64,000 nt of DNA from Escherichia coli (GCF_017348835.2 NZ_CP071375.1), one strand, 5' to 3'; shown: positions 5,824 through 54,572, counted from the stretch's first letter. Notes: a model not told the origin generated them from the letters alone. Translations and numbers: made by a program.

Positions 5824-6077
5824 GTGGTGATTTCTCTGATAGACCAGGATTATGACTACGAAAAGATTGATGACTTGAATGTTATGGTTATGTTTAATGT
5901 TAGCACATTTACATAACTTTCAGCTTCCATACACAACATAGCAGAAATGTATGACAGCTCACTATTTTTGAAGCTTGTCACAGGACGTCATTATAGTGTG
6001 TGTCAGATCTCGTTTTCCTTAACCATGTTACATAGAATGTGCACGGAAATTTAACCTGCCTCATATTTGGAGCAAAT

Positions 6078-7280
6078 ATGGACCGCGTCCTTCATTTTGT
6101 ACTGGCACTTGCCGTTGTTGCGATTCTCGCACTGCTGGTAAGCAGCGACCGCAAAAAAATTCGTATCCGTTATGTTATTCAACTGCTTGTTATCGAAGTG
6201 TTACTGGCGTGGTTCTTCCTGAACTCCGACGTTGGTTTAGGCTTCGTGAAAGGCTTCTCCGAAATGTTCGAAAAACTGCTCGGATTTGCCAACGAAGGGA
6301 CTAACTTCGTCTTTGGTAGCATGAATGATCAAGGCCTGGCATTCTTCTTCCTGAAAGTGCTGTGCCCAATCGTCTTTATCTCTGCACTGATCGGTATTCT
6401 CCAGCACATTCGCGTGTTGCCGGTGATTATCCGCGCAATTGGTTTCCTGCTCTCCAAAGTCAACGGCATGGGCAAACTGGAATCCTTTAACGCCGTCAGC
6501 TCTCTGATTCTGGGTCAGTCTGAAAACTTTATTGCCTATAAAGATATCCTCGGCAAAATCTCCCGCAATCGTATGTACACCATGGCAGCAACGGCGATGT
6601 CCACCGTATCTATGTCCATCGTTGGTGCATACATGACCATGCTGGAGCCGAAATATGTCGTTGCGGCGCTGGTACTGAACATGTTCAGCACCTTTATCGT
6701 GCTGTCGCTGATCAACCCTTACCGTGTTGATGCCAGTGAAGAAAACATTCAGATGTCCAACCTGCACGAAGGTCAGAGCTTCTTCGAAATGCTGGGTGAA
6801 TACATTCTGGCAGGTTTCAAAGTTGCCATTATCGTTGCCGCGATGCTGATCGGCTTTATCGCCCTGATCGCCGCGTTGAACGCACTGTTTGCCACCGTGA
6901 CTGGCTGGTTTGGCTACAGCATCTCCTTCCAGGGCATCCTGGGCTACATCTTCTATCCGATTGCATGGGTGATGGGTGTTCCGTCCAGCGAAGCACTGCA
7001 AGTGGGCAGTATCATGGCGACCAAACTGGTTTCCAACGAGTTCGTTGCGATGATGGATCTGCAGAAAATTGCTTCCACGCTCTCTCCGCGTGCTGAAGGC
7101 ATCATCTCTGTGTTCCTGGTTTCCTTCGCTAACTTCTCTTCAATCGGGATTATCGCAGGTGCAGTTAAGGGTCTGAATGAAGAGCAAGGTAACGTGGTTT
7201 CTCGCTTCGGTCTGAAACTGGTTTACGGCTCTACCCTGGTGAGTGTGCTGTCTGCGTCAATCGCAGCACTGGTGCTGTAA
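6078..7280 (+). CDS. nupC: nucleoside:H+ symporter (CNT family)
   Basis: ORF 6039..7280 trimmed to ATG at 6078 ([20 protein letters not shown]...) with GGAG RBS at 6069-6072. Confidence 0.9.
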
Positions 7281-7329: not shown

Positions 7330-9519
7330 TTAATCAGCTAATGGCTGCGGGCGACCAATCAAATACCCTTGCAGATATTGCACCCCGAGCTTATGCAATA
7401 ACGCCTGCTGCTGTTGCGTCTCGACAAACTCCGCAACCACACTCAATGACTTCGCTTTCGCCAGATCGGTAATTGATCTCACAATCATCGCATCCAGCGT
7501 ATTCGTGACGATATCTTTCACAAAGACACCATCAATTTTGATGATATCAGCCTGCAAACGCTTTAACCGTTCGTAGTTGGCATAGCCGGTGCCAAAGTCA
7601 TCAATCGCAATCCGGAAGCCAAACTTATGCAGTTGCTCGATGTTGTACATGCTGCTTTCTGCGTTAGAAAACGCCTGCTCCTCGGTGATCTCAAGAATGA
7701 CCGCCTGCGGGGAGATGTGATAACGCTTAAACAGACGAATAATCCGCCCGGCAATATTCTTTTGTAGCAGCGTGAGCGGCATTAAATTAACTGAAAAGCG
7801 CGGGCCTTTTTTGTCGCAAGGGTGTGTTGCCAGCCACTTCAACAAGGATTCCAGCACTTGCAAATCAAAACGCGCGCTAAGGTTAAACTGAGCAATAAGG
7901 GGCAGAAACTTATCCCGGGTCATAATGCCGCCGTCATACTTCAGTCGCGCGAGGATCTCATCATAACCTTCACCCTCTTTGTTGCGAATTGGCTGGGCGT
8001 AGAGCAGCAAATCACCCTGATCTAACGCCGTGCGAATGGTATTCAGCAATAGCACTTGTTTAGTGGTCTGCCCGGAAACCATCTCCTCTCTGCTATCCAG
8101 CGCCAGCACATGATGATGTGCGCAGGATTGCTCCGCCAGCCAGCTTAACTGCCCCAACAAGGGTTGCAGGGTTTCCTGATTTCCATCAAAACGCCCCCAG
8201 GCAGCACCATAGCCCATATCCAGCCCGGTATTGTTCCAGTGAATTTGCCGACTATTCAGGATGTTAACCATATGCTGGAGTCGCCCTTCCGTTTCCGGCC
8301 CGCTCAGCACTAACAGCAGTTCACTACCCGGCAATTGATACAACTTTTCGTTTTCCTGCATCAACGGCAGCAGCGTACGGTAAATTGATCGGATACAGTG
8401 AACGCGCATCATTAACCCGTAATGACGACTCATAAACTCAAGATTATCAATGCGCAGGCAGCAAAAACTCTTGCCCGCCTCTTGCTCCGGCGCTTGTTCC
8501 AACGCACGAAAATTGGGTAGGAGCGTTAACGGATCGGTCAGCGCCTGCAAATGCCAGCGTCGATTAAGCCATTCACTGCGATGATAAATGCGCACCATAT
8601 AGAGCAGGCAAACGCTAAAGGAAATCAGCACCGCAAGAATAAATGCCAGCGAATATTCGGTTTCCACCCCTTGCAAAAAGTTCTGGTTGTAATTCAGCAG
8701 GCAAAGCGTTGAAACAGCCCAGGTGAGATTTAAAAACGGATAGCGAAGCTTACCGACCCCGAGGGTAAAGATGATGAAGAAAACGGGTACCAGGTAACCG
8801 GCAATAAAGTCGTTTTCATAAGGTGTGCACAACAGAAGTAGCAGCACGCTTAACGCTGCCAGCCAGCTTAAGGTAAATGCGCGTTTCTCTTTGCCCAACG
8901 ACGGAGCGATATCCCTGCGCCACAATATCTGCGCAAAGTGGGGACTTACAATCATGCGAGTGAGATAGTAGAAAAGCATGTTGTAAATCAGCACAGCGGT
9001 GAAAAGGCTTAGTAAATCAACAACCGTGAAAATGGCATCCGCATCGCCGAAAAAGGTGGATATCTTTAGCGGGAAATCAAAGAAGCTCCCCACAAAATAC
9101 ATGCTGCATTTGATGCCGATCGGCGTCACCAAACCAAGCCAGAACAGACGTTGCCAGACATATCGGCTGGTCAATCCATAACGCCAACGCGTCCCCAGCT
9201 GCCAGCGTAATATTGCGCAGGCACACAACACGACAAACGTCTGGCTGCCGAGCATGACCGCAGTCTGTAAAAAAGAGAGATGAAAGTTCCACAGATTGGT
9301 GCAAAACATCCCGCATAAAACGGGAACGACACCGCGCCAGCCAAAGATAAACAAGATTGACAGCATTACGCACAGTGGCATCCACGCCAGAAAGATATAA
9401 CTGGAATGGATAATGGCAAGTGGCGAAATAAAACGGGATAGCTGAATAAGTACCACGGTGAGCGTAAACGCTAGTGTGAATATCTTGATATTTTTTATCA
9501 GGTTATGCTCCACAAACAT
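7330..9519 (-). CDS. pdeA: membrane-anchored GGDEF(degenerate)-EAL c-di-GMP phosphodiesterase
   Basis: ORF 7330..9579 trimmed to MFVEHNLIKNIKIF... start (ATG complement 9517-9519); N-terminal TM segments, C-terminal EAL domain (EITEEQ...IAIDDFGTGY... motifs). Also known as yfeA. Confidence 0.85.
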   Translation of the reverse strand: MFVEHNLIKNIKIFTLAFTLTVVLIQLSRFISPLAIIHSSYIFLAWMPLCVMLSILFIFGWRGVVPVLCGMFCTNLWNFHLSFLQTAVMLGSQTFVVLCACAILRWQLGTRWRYGLTSRYVWQRLFWLGLVTPIGIKCSMYFVGSFFDFPLKISTFFGDADAIFTVVDLLSLFTAVLIYNMLFYYLTRMIVSPHFAQILWRRDIAPSLGKEKRAFTLSWLAALSVLLLLLCTPYENDFIAGYLVPVFFIIFTLGVGKLRYPFLNLTWAVSTLCLLNYNQNFLQGVETEYSLAFILAVLISFSVCLLYMVRIYHRSEWLNRRWHLQALTDPLTLLPNFRALEQAPEQEAGKSFCCLRIDNLEFMSRHYGLMMRVHCIRSIYRTLLPLMQENEKLYQLPGSELLLVLSGPETEGRLQHMVNILNSRQIHWNNTGLDMGYGAAWGRFDGNQETLQPLLGQLSWLAEQSCAHHHVLALDSREEMVSGQTTKQVLLLNTIRTALDQGDLLLYAQPIRNKEGEGYDEILARLKYDGGIMTRDKFLPLIAQFNLSARFDLQVLESLLKWLATHPCDKKGPRFSVNLMPLTLLQKNIAGRIIRLFKRYHISPQAVILEITEEQAFSNAESSMYNIEQLHKFGFRIAIDDFGTGYANYERLKRLQADIIKIDGVFVKDIVTNTLDAMIVRSITDLAKAKSLSVVAEFVETQQQQALLHKLGVQYLQGYLIGRPQPLAD

Positions 9520-9841: not shown

Positions 9842-9917
<76 letters not shown>

Positions 9918-9948
9918 GTCACGTAAAGCTTGTCGAGTTGACGGGCGG

Positions 9949-9977
9949 CATCATATGAATTCCGCCCGAATGTGTCA
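9949..9977 (-). promoter_or_regulatory. sigma70 promoter of the tRNA-Ala tandem
   Basis: On the minus strand: TTGACA (complement of 9972-9977), 17-bp spacer, TATGAT (complement of 9949-9954), ~30 nt upstream of the mature tRNA 5' end. Confidence 0.6.
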
Positions 9978-43577: not shown

Positions 43578-44939
43578 TCAGAAGAACAGTGACGGATCGC
43601 CCGCCCGTTTGGTCAGGCGACCGTTTGCCATAATGCCCATGCTTTCCAGCCAGCGTTCAAACTCCGGTGACGGGCGCAGGTTGAGTAACTGACGCACAGT
43701 GGCGGTATCGTGGAATGCGGTGGTCTGGTAATTGAGCATGATGTCATCACCCAGCGGCATCCCCATGATGTAGTTGCAGCCTGCGGTGGCGAGCAGGATC
43801 ATCAGGTTTTCGTTGAGGTTCTGGTCAGCGTCAGCGTGGTTGGTGTAACAGCAGTCACAGCCCATAGAGATGCCGCTCAGCTTGCCCATAAAGTGATCTT
43901 CTAAGCCCGCACGAATAATCTGGCGGTCATTGTAGAGATACTCCGGCCCAATAAAGCCGACCACGGTGTTGACGATAAACGGATCGTAATGACGCGCCAG
44001 CCCGTAGTTACGCGCTTCCATGGTCACCTGGTCTGCGCCGTAGTTGGCACCCGCCGACAGCGCCGAACCTTGCCCGGTTTCGAAGTAGAGGCAGTTTTCC
44101 CCGGCGATACGGTTGAACTCTGCACCCACTGCGCGCGCTTCGTCGAGCATCGCCAGTTCCACGCCAAACTCTTTCAGCCCTTTTTCACTGCCACAGATAC
44201 TCTGGAAAATCAGCCCGCCTGGTGCGCCACGACGAATCGCTTCGATCTGGGTGGTGACGTGCGCCAGTACGCAGCCCTGAGTTGGGATGTTGAATTTGTC
44301 GATCACGCCATAGATGGTGTCCAGCACGCGGCTTAAGTTTTCCACGTCGTCAGTTACCGGGTTGACGCCGATCACCGCATCGCCCACCCCGAAGGAAAGC
44401 CCTTCGTAGATTTGCGCGGCGATACTTTGCACGTCGTCACGGGTGTCATTTGGCTGCAAACGGGCGCTAAAGGTGCCCGGAATACCGATGGTGGTATTGG
44501 CCTTTTTGATTACCGGCATTTTCTTCGCGCCGTAGATCAGGTCCGCGTTGGAGCAAATCTTCGCTACCGCCGCGACCACTTCCGAGGTCAGCCCTTTGCG
44601 GGTAAAGGCAATGTCGTCCACGCTGGTTTCATCGCTCAGCACATACTCACGCAGTTCGCTGATGCTCCAGTTTTTAATCTGGTTGTAGGCCGTTTCGTTA
44701 ACATCGTCCTGAATCAGCCGCGTCACGCAGTCATCTTCATAGGCAATCACCGGATTATTGCGGATGTCCGCTACGGTCATTTCCGACAACACCTGCTTTG
44801 CTGCCACGCGCTCCTGTGAGCTTGCCGCTGCAACGCCCGCCAGCACATCCCCCGAACGCAGTTCGTTGGCTTTAGCCAGCACCTCTTTTACATCCTTAAA
44901 CTGATATACATTGCCGAACAATGTGGTCTTTAGTTTCAT
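43578..44939 (-). CDS. eutB: ethanolamine ammonia-lyase large subunit
   Basis: ORF trimmed to MKLKTTLFGNVYQFKDVKEV... start (ATG complement 44937-44939), 453 aa. Confidence 0.93.
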   Translation of the reverse strand: MKLKTTLFGNVYQFKDVKEVLAKANELRSGDVLAGVAAASSQERVAAKQVLSEMTVADIRNNPVIAYEDDCVTRLIQDDVNETAYNQIKNWSISELREYVLSDETSVDDIAFTRKGLTSEVVAAVAKICSNADLIYGAKKMPVIKKANTTIGIPGTFSARLQPNDTRDDVQSIAAQIYEGLSFGVGDAVIGVNPVTDDVENLSRVLDTIYGVIDKFNIPTQGCVLAHVTTQIEAIRRGAPGGLIFQSICGSEKGLKEFGVELAMLDEARAVGAEFNRIAGENCLYFETGQGSALSAGANYGADQVTMEARNYGLARHYDPFIVNTVVGFIGPEYLYNDRQIIRAGLEDHFMGKLSGISMGCDCCYTNHADADQNLNENLMILLATAGCNYIMGMPLGDDIMLNYQTTAFHDTATVRQLLNLRPSPEFERWLESMGIMANGRLTKRAGDPSLFF

Positions 44940-45127
44940 AAGTCGTTCCCTCAGGAAGAAGTGATGAGTGACATTTTTCACAGCCTTCAAACAATTCTAT
45001 TTCATCGTTAACCCTTGTCCTGTAAGGTAATTACCTTAGTACGCCCGCTATTCATCCTGCCGAACGCAACCGAACGCGCCGGATACATGAGCGGGGTTAT
45101 CGAGTCGTTAGATCGAGGTATCCGGTT

Positions 45128-46333
45128 TTGAGCAAGACACCACTGACAGCAAAGGCCATAGAGGCCGCACAACCGCAGGACAAGCCCTATAAACTCACCG
45201 ATTCACAGACACCTGGCCTGTTTTTGCTGGTCCATCCCAACGGCAGCAAATACTGGCGATTCCGGTATTGGATAGACAAGAAGGAGCGGTTACAGGCTAT
45301 TGGGGTGTATCCGCTGATTAGCCTCAAGGAAGCCCGCAAACGCGCCACAGAGAGCCGTTTACTGATAGCCCAGGGAATTGACCCAATGGATTTGGCACGC
45401 AAGGAGAAAGCCATTGATGCTCTTAATGCTATCGCCAGTTTTAAAGCTGTAGCAGAAGACTGGATGGCTACCAAGGTGAGCGGATGGAGTGAGAGCTATA
45501 CAAAGCAGGTCAGATCGGCACTAGAGAAAGATGTTTACCCCGTGCTAGGTAAGCGGTCGATAGTGGATATAACGGCCCGTGACGTGCTGGCGTTACTACA
45601 GAAAAAGGAGCGCACCGCACCGGAACAAGCCAGGAAATTACGCCAGCGTATCGGGGAGATCTTCAAATTTGCCGTTATCACTGAACTGGTTAACCGGAAT
45701 CCGGTTGCAGATCTGGATACGGCACTGAAAGCCAGACGCCCAGGCCATAACGCGTGGATACCGATTAATGAAATTCCGGCCTTCTACAAAGCCCTTGAGA
45801 GAGCTGGGAGCGTTCAGATTCAGACGGCAATACTTTTGCTCATCCTCACAGCTTTGAGGACGGCAGAATTGCGCCTGATGCGCTGGGAATGGGTAGATCT
45901 GCAATCGGCAACAATCACATTGCCCGCTGAAGTCATGAAGGCCCGCCGACCGCATGTTGTCCCGCTATCCCGGCAGGCGGTCGAGCTATTACAGGACCAG
46001 TTTACCCGCAGCGGATACAGTGCTTTCGTCTTTCCTGGCCGATTCATGGACAAGCCACTTTCAGCCAGTGCCATCCTTAAAGCCCTGGAGCGTATCGGAT
46101 ACAAGTCGATAGCCACAGGCCACGGCTGGCGGACCACCTTTTCAACGGCGCTTAATGAGTCCGGCAGGTACTCACCAGACTGGATCGAAATCCAACTGGC
46201 CCACGTTCCGAAAGGCGTGCGCGGTGTTTATAACCAGGCGGCCTACCTGAAGCAACGACGGGCCATGATGCAGGATTATAGCGACTGTATTGATTCAATA
46301 CTGGCTGGTGACGGTAATCCACTTGAACCGTGA
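45128..46333 (+). CDS. intZ: P4-type tyrosine integrase
   Basis: 401-aa ORF (TTG start in the ORF track); N-terminal arm-binding-type domain (DKPYKLTDSQTPGLFLLVHPNGSKYWRFRYW), catalytic region with HGWR and terminal ...GVYNQAAYLKQRRAMMQ tyrosine motif. The symbol is assigned by position only. Confidence 0.85.
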   Translation: MSKTPLTAKAIEAAQPQDKPYKLTDSQTPGLFLLVHPNGSKYWRFRYWIDKKERLQAIGVYPLISLKEARKRATESRLLIAQGIDPMDLARKEKAIDALNAIASFKAVAEDWMATKVSGWSESYTKQVRSALEKDVYPVLGKRSIVDITARDVLALLQKKERTAPEQARKLRQRIGEIFKFAVITELVNRNPVADLDTALKARRPGHNAWIPINEIPAFYKALERAGSVQIQTAILLLILTALRTAELRLMRWEWVDLQSATITLPAEVMKARRPHVVPLSRQAVELLQDQFTRSGYSAFVFPGRFMDKPLSASAILKALERIGYKSIATGHGWRTTFSTALNESGRYSPDWIEIQLAHVPKGVRGVYNQAAYLKQRRAMMQDYSDCIDSILAGDGNPLEP

Positions 46334-46884
46334 ACTATAAGGCCGGGTTTATACTCAATATCGACGGTTGAAGCGCTCAAAAAACAACCGTGACAACCGT
46401 CACAAATATGCAATGTCAATGATCTGAATCAATAAATTGCCAATTCTTCGTTTCCACTTTCGAATGAAAGCAAGATGCAGAAAAATAAATCACCATGAAA
46501 TCATGTACTTATTAATTTTGACCAAATGGTCCAAAATATCCTCGGTGAATCCATGCTTGCCACAGCCAGATGATTAATATTTAACCCATGACTTTCGAAT
46601 GAAAGTAAATTGATAAAAAAGTCAGTGTACACTAACTAAATCGAATATTTTTTGCGCTATGTTTGAATGATAATTGAGCAAAACTTTCGCAAGGTGTGAC
46701 GATGTGAGTAATTAATTTTAACTCTACAATAAACCCATCCCGACAGGGATGGTACCTGGAGCGGAGCGAGAGGGACCATCCCCCTGTTTTTAGTCTTTTG
46801 AAGTTAGTTTTTTAAGGGATTAAATAATTTTGCCTCAAATGAGACCACACCATACAAGGCCAAAAACAATCAGTATTGCGTGGA

Positions 46885-47400
46885 TCAGGCTGGTTTTTTA
46901 ACTATATACCCCGTATGCCAAGGATTCTGATCGCGCGGCATCGGGTCCGCCTTGATAGACTCATAAAACTTATCAGCCATCTCAGCCACAAACTGTACAG
47001 AGGATTCGAACTCAGCGTTTTTGTGTGCGGGAGGAAACCAGAAGTCTAACACGCCAGCATTTCTATTTTTACATACAGCGTATATAAGATAAGCATCAGA
47101 TGTAGGGGTAACTTTTTCGAAACCACCGGGACCATAACGACCAGTAGACCAGTCATCCCAGCATTGTTCTGTCCCGCTATAGCCGTACTGATTGGTATAA
47201 AGACCAATATTTACATGGACTTTACGTAAGTGGATAGGATATACACACGGGGGTTTATGGAAAAGAGTATCCTTTCCAAAATCAGGATGATGTCCATATC
47301 TCCAATGATAAATAAACGAATCCTTAAAGCTCTTTAATTCATCGTTTGTTTTAAACTTATTATCACTGTAGACCTTACCAATAAATTCATTCTGGACCAT
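46885..47400 (-). CDS. YafO-like toxin-family protein (putative toxin of a two-gene module)
   Basis: 171-aa ORF from ATG (complement 47398-47400); motifs DFGKDTLF, PIHLRKVHVNIG, SDAYLIYAVCK, FWFPPAHKNAE and VAEMADKF line up with YafO motifs as I recall them (FGRDALY, HIHL, EAHLVYCQG, KPEPHKLA, MAEAF). Confidence 0.5.
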   Translation of the reverse strand: MVQNEFIGKVYSDNKFKTNDELKSFKDSFIYHWRYGHHPDFGKDTLFHKPPCVYPIHLRKVHVNIGLYTNQYGYSGTEQCWDDWSTGRYGPGGFEKVTPTSDAYLIYAVCKNRNAGVLDFWFPPAHKNAEFESSVQFVAEMADKFYESIKADPMPRDQNPWHTGYIVKKPA

Positions 47401-47734
47401 CAAAGCTTACACTCTTTAAGCGTTCTTCTCGTGAATCGAATAAATCTTTTGATAAATCACACGCTTGTGTGAACGTCATTTTTTTTACTCGTGGTACAGC
47501 CATAGGCGAGGCCGCATTCATCACTTTGTTTTCTTCGTGATCGAGAGTAGCAGTGTAGCGAAACATGACACTTTTACCGCGCACCAACTGGTATCCTAGT
47601 CGATACGCTAACGCGTCAAGATGCGTCAGACGATTTGTTTTACGCAAGCCAGTCATAGCTTTTGGCTTACGAGTGCGCACAGAAAGGGATTTCCCTTCTC
47701 GCTTAGTCGCAAACAAAGTAACTATTTTTGACAT
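47387..47734 (-). CDS. small basic protein, putative partner/antitoxin of the downstream toxin-like gene
   Basis: 115-aa ORF from ATG (complement 47732-47734) with GGAGAT RBS; stop lies 10 bp before the downstream gene start; Lys/Arg-rich N-terminus. Confidence 0.45.
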   Translation of the reverse strand: MSKIVTLFATKREGKSLSVRTRKPKAMTGLRKTNRLTHLDALAYRLGYQLVRGKSVMFRYTATLDHEENKVMNAASPMAVPRVKKMTFTQACDLSKDLFDSREERLKSVSFDGPE

Positions 47735-48706
47735 GGTATCTCCTGACATCAATCTGCTAAGGCCATTGTGCCTTGTTTGAATAGTAAACTATTCGCCCAA
47801 TCTACACCAGTGATTTTCTTGACGCCAATAGTAAAGGCAGCATTGCCCACCACAGGCAGACAATGAGACTTCAGATAGCGCACCTTCTATCGCGCACGCG
47901 CTCAATAAAACCAACGACACCGCCATCCTGCCTGACCGATGTTTTTAACCAGCGTATACAGAGAAACAGACAACAGCATGAAATCAGCGTATATCCAGGT
48001 GCAGACGGCACTATCACACAACGCACAGCAGGCTGAGGTGAACACTCAAGCAACTTTATCCCCGCCACCGACCACCGCAAACTATCATGACCGTGCCAAA
48101 TTCAAAAGGAATGGCCCATATAACGCGATGAACACACATAAGCGCTACACTTGCTTACCTGAAAACTTCACAGCGTCACAGCGCGTTTTAGACACGTTAA
48201 AATTAATGAGATTTCATTAAATTTTCACCAGACACCGGAACAAGCCTATAAATCAAAAATGAATTACCGACATGCGCCGCTGGCGTTCACAGGAAGAATC
48301 AATAACTTAGGCCAATGGCGAAAGTTAAACAAAATCAAGAACTTGCAGAAATGCAGGATGAAGCAGCCGATGTGCCCCGTTGGATTTTACCAGAAGAATC
48401 AACAAGTTAGACTCGGTGATTTCACCGACTCCTGCCGGACTACTGACCAGATCGAACCATTCCCCAAATTTGGGGAGAGCAAACCACACGCAGATCCTGC
48501 CAGGCTATTTCATCCCACCGCATCACGTATTTGCACACTTCCCCGCTGACGTGCTCATTTTGATAACGAGTTACCCGCTAGCCCTTGCCACATCACCATT
48601 TGTCGCGCTTTGACTAAATTAGCGACGTGCCTGTTATAGCGATACGCTAGTTATGCAGAAAGCGCGACATATCCAGCAACCATGCACCCTACAGAGGAAT
48701 TGAATC

Positions 48707-49159
48707 ATGCGAGACATAGACTGGTCAGCTATCCCTTTCGATGATTTACCGCCCTGGCATCTGGACTGGGACGTAGACCAACGCGAAAACGCGACATATC
48801 CAGCAACCACCAGCATTACAGCGATGCGCCCCGTAAAGCCTAAGAAATACCAGGCAACCGACCTGATAGCTCACCTCAAAGCTATTGGCGGCGTATTTAC
48901 CGGAAGCAAAGACACGCTTGCACATGAAGTATGGCCCCGGAAGACGCCAGCGGGTCGAACCGTTTTACGCTTACTGACCGAACTGTCAGACAACGGCGAC
49001 GCTGTAGTGATTAACCGTGGTCGTTGTGGCGTGGAAGTTATTCTGACGCCGAAGAACAGGGCACAGACGCCTGAATTAAGCGCACCCAAGCAAATGCATA
49101 GCCAAAAATTAAGTCCAGCAGAACGCGTTATATCGCTTTTAAATGGCATCGGATTTTAA
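48707..49159 (+). CDS. hypothetical island protein
   Basis: 150-aa ORF with GAGGA RBS 8 nt upstream of ATG; no recognisable family. Confidence 0.5.
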   Translation: MRDIDWSAIPFDDLPPWHLDWDVDQRENATYPATTSITAMRPVKPKKYQATDLIAHLKAIGGVFTGSKDTLAHEVWPRKTPAGRTVLRLLTELSDNGDAVVINRGRCGVEVILTPKNRAQTPELSAPKQMHSQKLSPAERVISLLNGIGF

Positions 49160-49501: not shown

Positions 49502-49693
49502 ATGAATGATAGCGAATTAATGACGGTGAACGAGGTAGCCGCTTTATTCGGCGTTACCCGTCGGACAATATTCCGGTGGATGAACAAGATTAAAGGCTGG
49601 CCCGTCCCGGTCAGTCCGATTGGCTCAAGAATTAAGTTTATCCGATCTGAGATTTTGGAATTCTATAAAAACAAAGGCGCTCGCCACCAATGA
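49502..49693 (+). CDS. alpA: AlpA-family phage/island transcriptional regulator (excision control)
   Basis: 63-aa ORF MTVNEVAALFGVTRRTIFRWMNKIKGWPVPVSPIGSRIKFIRSEILEF: typical AlpA HTH signature; RBS GAGGTGAG. Confidence 0.8.
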   Translation: MNDSELMTVNEVAALFGVTRRTIFRWMNKIKGWPVPVSPIGSRIKFIRSEILEFYKNKGARHQ

Positions 49694-51638: not shown

Positions 51639-53819
51639 ATGAGTGGAAATCTCGGGACCATATACTACGAGGTCGATGCCCGCACTGGGAAACTTCTTAT
51701 CGCGCAACAGCAGGCGGAAGAGGCGTTCGATCGCATTGAACGAGGAGCGCGGAAGGCTGATAGCGGCGTCAAAAAGTTAAATACGCAGATGACTAAAACA
51801 TCAGCCGCAGTCAAAACCAACCTTTCCCCGGCAATCCGTAACGCATCATACCAGATCGCAGACCTTGCCACTCAATTGCAGATGGGCGGTAATGCGCTTC
51901 AGGCGTTCGCTGTGCAGGGTGCGCAGTTATTAGCTGGCTTTGGCACGATGGGCGCGGTAGCTGGCGCGGTGCTGGCTATCGCTGGCGCTATGGGTGGAAG
52001 CCTGGCACAAGGCGCTGATAGTGCAGCCGGATCGGTTGAGTATCTGGACAAGGCGATCACCAAACTGAACGAGGTCATAGCTGTAAATGAACAGGGCGTG
52101 ACGGTGATGAGTGATAGTTACGCCAGACTTTCTAAGGTTAACGCTGAAGTAGCGAAACAGATGCGGAACATGGCTGAAATTCAGGCAATTGCAGCACTGC
52201 GTGACCTGAAAGAACAGGCAAGCCAGGCACAGGGGGAAATGTCGTCATTCTGGCGCAGCTTGCAGGGTGGTAAAGCTGACGCAGCAGCAGCAGCACAGGC
52301 ACTTGATGATCTTGGAATCACAACCAACGACTACAAAGAGGCGATAGCCATACTGAACGCCAATCAGCCGGATACACAGGCGCAAATGGCAACGCTAGCT
52401 AAGTCCGTGATGTACATAGGCGAGGAATACAACCTGACAAACCAGCAAGCCTACGAGTTCATCCGAGCACTAAATAGGGCCGCGACAACGAGAACGCCGG
52501 AAGCCATGCAGGAACTATCGGGCTTCATGCAGGTATTGCTACAGGACACCGAAAACGGTAACGAGGCATTCCGTGAACTGGCTATCAAATTCGTTGATGC
52601 ACAAACCAAAGGCGCAATGCTGGAAGACCAACTAAACCGACTGAAAGGCGCTATCAGTGACGCAGCCACAGAAGCCAGAAACGCCAATTTTACCACTATG
52701 CTCAACACCGTCGCCGCACGCCTGGCAGCCATTGAGCAAGGTTGGGAGGCAGGCGTTAGGATGCAGATGAAAGCCCAGGGCTACACTGAAGAGCAGATCG
52801 ATGAATATGTGAACATGGAAACGGCGTACCGTGATGCAAAAGCCGCTTTGGACGAGAAGAATAAGGCCGACCGTGAAGCTATTGCGCTATCCAAACGCCA
52901 GGCCGCAGAAGCAGCCCGCAAGGCAAAACAGGAAGAAGCTGAAGCACAACGCAAGGCCAAACAGTTAGCCGCGCAGAAGGAGCAGGCAGGACGCTTTACG
53001 CAGCAAGTAATGACGGAATACCTGACGACCGTAGATCCGGCAACAGGCAAGGCGTTTAACCCTGCCGCACAAGTAGAAATGCAGGAGCAGCAGAAGAAAG
53101 CGGCGCTGGATAAATACAGACAGTTGGGCGTCCTGGATGAACAGCAGTACCAGAACACGCTAACCGCCATCCAGAAAACCGCGTCAATGCGCCGCCAGCA
53201 AATCATCAAAGACGAGGCCGACACGTTATTCAACAATCAGCAACAGTTGATCGGCACATTTGGCGATTTCTTCGGTGAACTGTCTGGAGTCATAGCAGAC
53301 GGTGCAGGTGAGCAAAACGCGGCATATCAAGCGCTATTTGCTGTGCAGAAGGGTTTTGTATTGGCATCAGCAGCTTTAAGCCTTCAGAAAGCGCTTGCTG
53401 AGGCAAACGCCTTGCCTTTCCCGGCTAATCTTCCGGCCTATGCGCAAGCTATGTCAGCAGGCACGCAGATCATTTCAGCTATTCGTGGAATAGCTTTCGG
53501 TGGCGGACGCTACAACGGCGGCGCGGTTGGTGCTGGCAACCTGTACCGCGTGGGTGAACACGGTAAGCCTGAGATATTCAAGGCGAACAATGGCAGCCAG
53601 TACATGATCCCAGGTGATAACGGTCGCGTGATAAGTAATCGTGACATTGGCGGCGGTGGCGGCGTAACAATCAACAGCCCGATCACCATTAACACTACGA
53701 ATGGCTTCAGTGATGAAGACTCAAGGCGTCTTGAGGAAGCGATGAAGCGCGTAGCTATGGGCGTTTGCAGGCAGGAGTCAACCAGACCGGGAGGAATGTT
53801 AGCCCCGCGCCGTCGTTAA
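51639..53819 (+). CDS. phage tail tape-measure-like protein
   Basis: 726-aa ORF: glycine/alanine-rich hydrophobic segment (LLAGFGTMGAVAGAVLAIAGAMGGSLAQGADSAAG), long A/Q/E/K-rich coiled-coil middle, C-terminal G-rich region with YRVGEHGKPE motif. Confidence 0.7.
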   Translation: MSGNLGTIYYEVDARTGKLLIAQQQAEEAFDRIERGARKADSGVKKLNTQMTKTSAAVKTNLSPAIRNASYQIADLATQLQMGGNALQAFAVQGAQLLAGFGTMGAVAGAVLAIAGAMGGSLAQGADSAAGSVEYLDKAITKLNEVIAVNEQGVTVMSDSYARLSKVNAEVAKQMRNMAEIQAIAALRDLKEQASQAQGEMSSFWRSLQGGKADAAAAAQALDDLGITTNDYKEAIAILNANQPDTQAQMATLAKSVMYIGEEYNLTNQQAYEFIRALNRAATTRTPEAMQELSGFMQVLLQDTENGNEAFRELAIKFVDAQTKGAMLEDQLNRLKGAISDAATEARNANFTTMLNTVAARLAAIEQGWEAGVRMQMKAQGYTEEQIDEYVNMETAYRDAKAALDEKNKADREAIALSKRQAAEAARKAKQEEAEAQRKAKQLAAQKEQAGRFTQQVMTEYLTTVDPATGKAFNPAAQVEMQEQQKKAALDKYRQLGVLDEQQYQNTLTAIQKTASMRRQQIIKDEADTLFNNQQQLIGTFGDFFGELSGVIADGAGEQNAAYQALFAVQKGFVLASAALSLQKALAEANALPFPANLPAYAQAMSAGTQIISAIRGIAFGGGRYNGGAVGAGNLYRVGEHGKPEIFKANNGSQYMIPGDNGRVISNRDIGGGGGVTINSPITINTTNGFSDEDSRRLEEAMKRVAMGVCRQESTRPGGMLAPRRR

Positions 53820-54317
53820 CCAAATCCCACGCCAGGGGGATAGACTGGCGGCCTTTCAATTCCGTTGAAACGACGGAATCAAACACCCCGATTCAGGGTA
53901 TTTAAACGTCGCGTTTCACGACATTTATCTAAGTCATTGATTTATATTGTAACTCATAATTGAGTTGCGCCGACCATCCCGCCACAAACGCTCCTACGCA
54001 AAAATTCCCTCACAATTACCCTGCCAATTTTCCAGATTTCACGTATACGCGCCTATATCCCCGCCACCGGATACACGCCCGCTTATACCGGATACTTTTA
54101 TGCCATCATTATTAAATCCATTAATAATCATCAAACCATAATTAGCACAACTTATAATCGAACAAAAAACACACAACATTGATAATGATTTTTTCTGGTT
54201 ATACTTATCTAAAAAAGTGGTATGGGAAGTAACTTATTGTTTTGTAATTACAAATTTATTGCGTGGTCAGATGAACAGACTTGCGCACCTCCCGAAAAAC
54301 ACGCGAAAATCGAAGTG

Positions 54318-54427
54318 TTCTTTCTTTTTTTGTTTTTTATTTTTTTATTTTCTCTTTTTCTTCTCTTTCCGGTTCTCTTCTTTTTCTGGTTTTGGTTTTT
54401 TCCTTTTTTATTTTTATTCTTTCTTCA
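54318..54427. repeat. polypyrimidine (T/C) low-complexity tract
   Basis: ~110 bp almost exclusively T and C on the plus strand (tctttctttttttgttttttatttttttattttctc...). Confidence 0.9.
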
Positions 54428-54572
54428 GGGTTGTGATCAAACACACCAAAACATTTTCGCCACAAAAGCGTTAATTTCATCCTGCCAGACCATTCACTTT
54501 CACCGGATACACAGCCGGATATAATCCCGCTAACACCCAGCCACCCAGCATCACGCCTGATAACTACCGTAT

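Follow-up and report, generated by a model that had tools for sequence, protein, structure and literature searches.

The question raised by positions 46334-46884 of the window—the whole stretch of 64,000 nucleotides of Escherichia coli DNA that was analysed—is what a segment without a recognisable gene, lying between an integrase gene and a toxin cassette, contributes to the island that carries it. The island measures ~9.6 kb and is inserted between eutB and eutA, the site occupied in K-12 by the cryptic prophage CPZ-55. The segment is framed by the following genes:

45128-46333, plus strand, intZ, directly upstream of the non-coding region
46885-47403, minus strand, YafO-family toxin, downstream of the non-coding region
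47387-47752, minus strand, partner of the YafO-family toxin
49502-49693, plus strand, AlpA/excisionase-type HTH gene

A 150-aa ORF is placed between the toxin-antitoxin pair and the AlpA/excisionase-type gene, and several small ORFs separate the latter from a 726-aa tape-measure-like gene. This largest gene of the island (51639-53819) matches phage tail tape-measure families (PHROG 1538, E 3e-103; PHROG 1107, 7e-58; weakly, Pfam TMP_2); apart from it, no gene for tail, capsid, or replication can be recognised in the 9.6-kb island. In sister islands, a TerS-like protein, an HNH endonuclease, or an HK97 gp10-family protein is encoded in addition, and the element may be a satellite or a remnant. 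The island ends are marked by an imperfect direct repeat (TCAGGAAG..GAGTGA) near ~44951 and ~54556. CCGGATA repeats at 45079, 45119, 54067, 54088, 54503, and 54515 are clustered near both ends, recur in ATCC 8739, in the divergent attL arm of its island, and are probably the arm-type sites of IntZ; the segment itself contains no site fitting that role. An internal att-like core (CATCCTGC) was discarded because it is not conserved in sister islands, and no tRNA or tmRNA attachment remnant was detected near the region. Just inside the right island end, upstream of the CCGGATA repeats, the plus strand carries an almost pure pyrimidine (T/C) tract of ~110-130 nt (54316-54450), in which Tandem Repeats Finder reports several overlapping T-rich periods.

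The functional unit within this segment is a conserved non-coding cassette of ~470 bp:

46351-46818, no strand, conserved non-coding cassette, homology shared in 52 E. coli records

Homology begins at 46351 whatever follows the int stop codon and ends at query position 449-485, either just past a GC-rich hairpin or ~25 bp beyond, where the cargo differs. The sequence-only reading had spread the features discussed below over the whole of 46334-46884; they do lie there, but the last ~65 bp (46819-46884) belong to the YafO-type toxin-antitoxin cassette. Relative to cargo-less sister islands the latter (46820-47920, 1.1 kb) is an insertion, located exactly at the right border of the conserved cassette, a position at which different small ORFs are found in other islands; this border is a cargo hot spot. 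The conserved cassette forms a mosaic unit of its own, which does not depend on the int 3′ end or on the cargo. Its distribution is narrow: the 52 records stem from 51 of 5426 complete E. coli genomes (~1%), always from IntZ islands at the eut site save for one IncFIB plasmid copy, and it was found in E. coli only. A metagenome scan returned exclusively E. coli-like copies of ≥83% identity. The cassette is absent from K-12 CPZ-55 and from IntZ relatives (68-69% protein identity) at the same eut site, and a search of 50,697 phage records gave no similarity to it even with the cutoff relaxed to E≤10, nor did IMG/VR. The plasmid copy (pIncFIB of strain PapRG-04-4, 6001-6432) resides on a conjugative plasmid without integrase, lacks the hairpin unit, and is surrounded by IS fragments. 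Here the cassette is inverted relative to an AlpA-type operon, whose start lies ~165 bp from the left end of the cassette; this arrangement is compatible with a promoter or operator role, though no proof of one.

That the segment encodes no protein is clear from several observations. The longest ORF in 46334-46884 spans at most 47 aa, in agreement with the sequence-only reading, and PGAP annotates nothing there, either in the identical genome or in 49 of the 52 records. Substitutions among 13 cassette variants show no 3-base periodicity, and tblastx against K-12 CPZ-55 yields no match for the region. A coding or decayed coding sequence, which the same reading had named as the outcome that would overturn it, is ruled out on these grounds. 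Its description of the region as AT-rich is also borne out (GC 33-40% versus 50-56% in int). Indels across the 13 variants are confined to single bases, unlike in the neighbouring pseudo-ORF at 47939-48220: this 93-aa ORF-like segment is intact in the window, frameshifted in ATCC 8739, and interrupted by a premature stop in strains 1504D004 and ES5, and is probably a decaying gene or non-coding. Among the 13 variants, 36% of the alignment columns of the cassette are variable. Its divergence amounts to 11-14% versus 20-30% at four-fold sites of int, a comparison blurred by mosaic recombination.

Conserved elements stand out against this background. Two exact copies of ACTTTCGAATGAAAG occur at 46456-46470 and 46591-46605, as the sequence-only reading had reported, and the pattern CTTTC-N4-GAAAG is found at these 2 places only in the 64-kb window, against 0.06 expected. 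Each copy forms part of a 16-bp palindrome, ACTTTC-GAAT-GAAAGT, and the centre-to-centre distance is 135 bp, the spacing noted before, which is close to 13 helical turns.

46456-46471, no strand, box 1, candidate YciT-type operator ACTTTCGAATGAAAGc; motif also at ybiYp and under YciT ChIP-exo peaks
46591-46606, no strand, box 2, perfect 16-bp palindrome ACTTTCGAATGAAAGT, candidate YciT-type operator by identity with the ybiY promoter
46677-46690, no strand, invariant block AGCAAAACTTTCGC, containing a third half-box ACTTTCG at 46683

The core of box 1 (CTTTCGAATGAAAG) is invariant, and that of box 2 is likewise unchanged in all 13 aligned variants. Most variants continue directly after each box with TAAAAT or TAAATT, as at ybiY, and the hexamer behind box 2 reads TAAATC in the ATCC 8739 type; the A-rich flank may be part of the YciT motif.

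The identity of these boxes emerged from a literature match of a 12-mer to the Salmonella pflE promoter, orthologous to the E. coli fsaA-ybiY region, which led to the operator of ybiY. Oligonucleotides derived from the pflE promoter carry the 12-mer, and the palindrome is conserved there (PMC3326293). In the ybiY promoter, K-12 863545-863560 agrees with box 2 at 16 of 16 positions, and a single flanking base sets box 1 apart; the K-12 16-mer sits in the fsaA-ybiY intergenic region, 34-49 bp upstream of the ybiY start. The ybiYW genes are anaerobically active and repressed by YciT, and DNA chromatography coupled to mass spectrometry found this DeoR-family protein enriched at the ybiYW promoter (bioRxiv 10.1101/2025.05.13.653802). 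Since an earlier ChIP-exo peak lies ~100 bases farther from ybiY than this enrichment (bioRxiv 10.1101/2025.05.13.653802), YciT is placed on the palindrome. Deletion of yciT raises ybiY by log2 7.7 and ybiU by log2 7.0 (PMC8464067 supplement). Further copies of the motif lie just upstream of ybiU and ybiV, and the presence of the palindrome upstream of all three genes fits their joint derepression in the yciT mutant; the K-12 positions of TTTCGAATGAAA upstream of ybiU, ybiV, and ybiY are 859077, 860097, and 863545, and the published ChIP-exo coordinates for this locus are 100-150 bp off the motifs. The motif was compared with the sequences under the peaks, after conversion of the published ChIP-exo coordinates to the current K-12 record. 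In the peaks at yfcV (the strongest), sixA, and rdcA, the motif is located mid-peak.

Both boxes conform to the palindrome (A)CTTTC-N4-GAAAG(T). Because box 2 is identical to the ybiY palindrome and the motif recurs under YciT peaks, the boxes are, by sequence, YciT-type operators, to which YciT presumably binds. The repeats, which had been described as small hairpins, are therefore better seen as 16-bp palindromic operators matching the ybiY site. Among the three roles suggested for the region—a small RNA, an integrase-proximal regulatory RNA, and protein-binding iterons—protein binding comes closest, but the term iteron does not apply to only two full palindromic copies. A general affinity of YciT for prophages was considered and rejected, since the peaks in CPZ-55, DLP12, CPS-53, and CP4-6 are of low signal and lack the palindrome; in K-12 CPZ-55, two published YciT peaks (near yffQ and in yffS; 8379-8424 and 9907-9952 of the extracted locus) share AGATGGGAGGTGAA without the YciT palindrome. 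In the published ChIP-exo set, YciT has many bound sites without known effect.

Between the two palindromes lies a further motif that had been missed before, a RutR box at a distance of 62 bp from box 1 and 73 bp from box 2. An IHF consensus is located to its left.

46518-46533, no strand, putative RutR box TTGACCAAATGGTCCA, one mismatch to TTGACCAnnTGGTCAA
46427-46439, plus strand, IHF consensus AATCAATAAATTG, exact match to WATCAANNNNTTR

The RutR box matches 13 of 14 consensus positions, the sole such match in the window (0.01 expected), and lies within 46513-46545, among the most conserved blocks of the cassette. Its half-sites equal those of the carA site TTGACCATTTGGTCCA. The carAB site is the strongest RutR site of the chromosome. 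Positions 4 and 13 of the RutR box are reported to be its key determinants (PMC2475637); in the cassette, none of the aligned variants departs from A4 or T13. When 100,044 reference genomes were scanned for the exact pattern of a 22-mer around the box, no cassette homologues were retrieved; the matches were the carAB RutR operators of Pantoea, Erwinia, and Mixta, which precede carA by ~280 bp, and it is through these matches that the box was identified. Motif identity predicts that RutR binds here. Since RutR occupies many K-12 sites, most of them without measurable transcriptional effect (PMC2475637), occupancy alone would be no proof of regulation. The IHF consensus site is invariant in all variants. 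Of 8 exact matches in the window, where 2.2 are expected, 7 fall in the island (46427, 48297, 48333, 48397, 49717, 51489, and 53930), three of them within 112 bp (48297-48409); all seven begin with AATCAA and could represent IHF sites or else an island protein's motif. Look-alikes of PurR, ArgR, Xer/cer, FNR, CRP, and NsrR sites seen by eye were discarded as too weak or not significant; GTGA-N6-TCAC has 3 matches against 0.8 expected.

The arrangement of these motifs resembles known control regions without copying any of them. Like the ybiYW (pflE/pflF-like) promoter, the cassette carries ACTTTCGAATGAAAGT with an A/T-rich hexamer directly after it. However, ybiY possesses a single operator between an FNR-like site and the -10 element of a known, anaerobically active promoter, whereas the cassette has a pair of predicted operators spaced by 135 bp and lacks both a convincing promoter and a downstream gene. 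With the carAB P1 control region it shares the RutR half-sites TTGACCA..TGGTCCA, the flanks AATTTTGACCA, and an IHF consensus with the identical 12-mer AATCAATAAATT, which occurs in reverse complement in the K-12 dapB-carA intergenic region. In contrast to carAB, the IHF site is inverted and the spacing differs (91 versus ~122 bp), PurR and PepA elements as well as a carP1-like promoter are missing, and no extended homology between the cassette and the carAB region was found. In geometry it can be compared with the looping pairs deo O1/O2/OE (DeoR) and gal OE/OI (GalR, HU), with which the cassette has in common two identical predicted operators of DeoR-family type separated by integral helical turns, and another predicted protein site near the midpoint. 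Other DeoR-family proteins, such as DeoR itself and GlpR, are oligomers that bridge operators, which makes DNA looping between the two boxes plausible by analogy.

The right end of the cassette is formed by the GC-rich stem structure, and a second, smaller structure is found at the left end:

46746-46791, plus strand, main hairpin (arms B and C), GGGATGGTACCT, 13-nt loop GGAGCGGAGCGAG, AGGGACCATCCC, then CCTG and TTTTT; one 41-nt repeat unit
46735-46752, minus strand, short hairpin (arms A and B), CCATCCC-GACA-GGGATGG, then GTTTATTGT on the minus strand; terminator-like in the scan
46363-46401, plus strand, left-end hairpin GACGGTTG...CAACCGTC, -15 kcal/mol, z -3.6

The nested pairing described in the sequence-only reading is real: CCATCCC (46735-41) can pair with GGGATGG (46746-52), or the arm at 46746-57 with that at 46771-82, and the T run follows at 46787-91. 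RNA folding, one of the checks that reading had proposed, gives the B:C hairpin -21.1 kcal/mol and z = -3.0, with 0 of 200 shuffles as stable. Conservation of the stem pairs among homologous islands, whose failure would have spoken against a structure, is found as well, with compensatory changes. Two hairpin alleles exist that differ by 37.6% over 100 bp around the hairpin; ATCC 8739 has the second of them. In the second allele, all 11 of 11 pairs of the main stem are kept, including 3 double changes and 1 G-U pair; in slid controls, by contrast, pairing drops to 43-66% and double changes are absent. The short A:B stem contributes one compensatory pair, and arms A, B, and C are all altered together. 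The 13-nt loop GGAGCG-N-AGCGAG is nearly invariant except for its central base (1 of 13 positions changed versus 38% in the flanks). The 4-nt loop occurs in both orientations among the variants (GACA/TGTC and GTCA/TGAC); loop inversion of this kind is typical of template switching in palindromes.

The hairpin is part of a 41-nt tandem unit present in 0, 1, 2.9, or 3.9 copies. Most islands carry one unit plus an extra arm, the plasmid copy none, and one metagenome cassette three; strains 1504D004 and ES5, whose IntZ proteins are identical, have 2.9 and 3.9 perfect copies. The unit is confined to the cassette (1-4 places in each of 34 E. coli genomes) and was not found elsewhere in E. coli genomes, in phages, or in IMG/VR. 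Arm A is what remains of a preceding copy, so that tandem repetition explains both the alternative pairings and the three-arm layout. A copy number of 0-4 and absence from the plasmid suggest loose constraint. The unit shares inverted repeats, alternating short and long linkers, a variable unit number, and a location at gene 3′ ends with REP/BIME elements, but it is not similar to the REP consensus, and this assignment was rejected because the unit is not dispersed and stays confined to the cassette. ToxI-like arrays of type III toxin-antitoxin systems consist of tandem ~36-45-nt repeats followed by a terminator and a same-strand toxin ORF; here the unit is usually single and the next plus-strand ORF is decayed, so this candidate was also dropped.

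In its context, the hairpin is most likely an intrinsic terminator acting in both directions. On one side it is faced by the 3′ end of int, whose own terminator is gone from this island type, and on the other by that of the convergent toxin-antitoxin operon. A classic int terminator (GCCGGATTCGTCCGGCTTTTCTTTT) is present in K-12 and in three sister islands (in one of them at 5944-6000 of the extracted locus). In the window type it has been lost at 46334-46350 through a ~40-bp deletion with CCGG/CCG microhomology, which leaves the main hairpin as the first terminator-like structure downstream of int. On the other side, only one weak site intervenes between the YafO stop codon and the hairpin. 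T-rich runs flank the hairpin on both strands in both alleles: TTTTT behind the extended stem on the plus strand and the GTTTATTGT tail on the minus strand. Of these two sites, a simple scan recovers just the one on the minus strand, since the plus-strand loop exceeds 8 nt, and a d'Aubenton-Carafa-type score calculated by hand is borderline on both strands. Like bidirectional intrinsic (Rho-independent) terminators, the structure combines a GC-rich stem with T-rich runs on both strands between convergent 3′ ends, and its pairing is maintained by compensatory change. It differs from them, and is atypical as a terminator, in its three arms, its conserved 13-nt loop, a plus-strand run of only 4-5 T, and up to 4 tandem copies. 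The conservation of the loop goes beyond what a simple terminator would require, which counts against this reading. The lambda sib/tI retroregulator likewise places a structured element on the int strand downstream of int, with alternative structures that depend on the arriving transcript; however, the cassette stem of 12-14 bp is short for RNase III, the element is not parted from int by an attachment site, and the int genes of sister islands are followed by a terminator of their own, ahead of the cassette.

Taken together, the cassette can be explained as a spacer or insulator controlled by host regulators and closed by a two-way terminator, a reading to which we give about even chances and which builds on predicted binding and predicted termination. 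Its AT-rich body would serve as a docking platform for host DNA-binding proteins, offering two in-phase YciT-type operators, an operator for the uracil-sensing TetR-family protein RutR midway between them, and an IHF site. Oligomeric YciT might bridge the operators 135 bp apart and repress a weak promoter inside the cassette. The hairpin would stop int or cassette transcripts on the plus strand before they reach the variable cargo, and on the minus strand it would stop those of the convergent YafO-type toxin-antitoxin operon.

A consensus promoter scan of the region yields no promoter, and two weak candidates are conserved:

46702-46730, plus strand, weak candidate promoter ATGTGA-17-TACAAT, start near 46737; low score
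46405-46432, minus strand, weak candidate promoter TTGATT-16-CATATT, start near 46398, towards int

The first is the best plus-strand promoter-like site conserved in all variants, its TA.A.T hexamer being kept (TACAAT, TAAACT, TAAAAT) in an otherwise ~40-50% divergent stretch. The second scores at least 7.1 and on average 8.1 bits across the variants and is directly followed by a small terminator-like stem; on the minus strand of the left end, a short stem (46405-46388) with a T run is terminator-like, and a 9-nt tandem (ACAACCGTC x2.4) is present at this end. That the consensus scan yields none and that the conserved candidates are weak speaks against the proposed regulatory role.

A rival reading is a small trans-acting RNA. 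The hairpin would then be the body of an RNA of ~55 nt per unit, extending from about 46737 to the T run, whose purine-rich loop GGAGCG-N-AGCGAG recognises a target, or of a longer non-coding RNA of ~170-310 nt starting just after one of the boxes. Compensatory stem changes combined with a conserved 13-nt loop point in this direction, as do the AU-rich sequence before the hairpin, the U tail after it, the TA.A.T hexamer with its 17-bp spacer retained upstream in three divergent alleles, and the TAAAAT or TAAATT that follows both boxes in most variants as in the ybiY promoter. However, this A-rich flank may simply be YciT motif, and it reads TAAATC at box 2 of the ATCC 8739 type; the -35 element is poor and overall promoter scores are low; the loop has no complementary target in the window; and 0-4 copies would be odd for a specific small RNA. 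A scan of 44000-49000 on both strands with the Rfam 15 covariance models gave no match at E≤1; the curated families covered include C4/P4-CI-type antisense RNAs and riboswitch or leader families. A small RNA or an integrase-regulating RNA, as proposed in the sequence-only reading, thus finds no direct support, and we regard it as unlikely. Two related candidates were discarded: a CsrA sponge (ACAGGGAUG, GGA-rich loop), since the motif is lost in the second allele, and pairing of the ACUUUCG boxes with the loop sequence GCGAGAG suggested by RNAalifold, which comprises only 7 bp and is weakened in the second allele.

The alternative pairings could also constitute a cis-acting switch, in which the A:B stem (46735-52) is an antiterminator competing with the B:C terminator. 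Transcription coming from int would continue past the structure and that initiated at ~46737 would terminate, or else an antiterminator of a helper phage would open the valve downstream. The two stems are mutually exclusive and nearly isoenergetic, the minimum-energy fold shifts with the length of the flanks, the centroid of the 63-nt fold is unstructured, and all three arms changed jointly in the second allele. Yet the alternative pairings, which the sequence-only reading had likened to a terminator/antiterminator, have the simpler origin given above: with arm A a remnant of the 0-4-copy tandem unit, repeat homogenisation gives the triple change without selection for a switch. In addition, any plus-strand gene downstream of the hairpin in the window lies beyond an oppositely oriented 1.1-kb cassette, and in cargo-less islands the first downstream ORF is decayed. 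A switch is accordingly improbable.

Slightly less credit still is due to the view that the cassette is a mostly functionless spacer, with transcription factor motifs that arose incidentally or were captured as passengers and a hairpin that is no more than an unstable palindromic repeat devoid of a role. It would accommodate the narrow distribution, the mosaic history, the variable copy number with loss of the unit from the plasmid, and the many effectless sites of RutR and YciT. It does not sit well with boxes and a RutR core that are invariant while 36% of the columns vary, with a cassette nearly free of indels unlike its neighbour, or with three compensatory stem pairs that are hard to obtain without selection for pairing; we consider it quite improbable. 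Least credible of all, and very improbable, is a DNA-level mobility site, that is, a cos/pac packaging site, a replication origin, or a transfer origin with the hairpin recognised as DNA and the repeats as protein-binding iterons: AT-richness, the IHF consensus, repeated boxes, a dyad-symmetric GC-rich element, and the TerS-like or HNH genes of some sister islands might suggest it, but a helper-phage cos/pac mimic is opposed by the lack of phage similarity (E≤10; nothing in IMG/VR) and of lambda cosN in the island, and an iteron origin by two palindromic copies where at least three direct repeats, an initiator gene, and an AT-rich unwinding element belong, with no replicase or relaxase gene identified. 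A hairpin present in 0-4 copies fits poorly with a cleavage site, and the boxes match a chromosomal operator instead.

The reading as a host-regulated spacer or insulator with a two-way terminator can be extended to an activation sensor, although this step appears doubtful. YciT and RutR together would gate a transcript of the cassette, be it a non-coding RNA or one that extends into the cargo and the AlpA-type operon, so that activation of the island would respond to the metabolic state of the host. Repression by YciT would be relieved under anaerobic growth, as at ybiYW, and RutR would be released by uracil, and the hairpin with its variable copy number might be a quickly evolvable valve for transcriptional leakage. 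If this were true, the cassette would represent a sensor for the activation of a mobile element built entirely from host regulators.

For annotation, the consequence is that these ‘empty’ 470 bp ought to be labelled regulatory DNA with a terminator rather than searched for a gene. The natural alleles with 0, 1, 3, and 4 copies provide material for measuring how repeat number affects termination. If binding is real, a mobile island recruits the poorly understood YciT and the pyrimidine-sensing RutR right next to its integrase. Perfect, paired operators would then be added to the very small set of strong YciT sites, and with them a testable handle on the signal that YciT reads.
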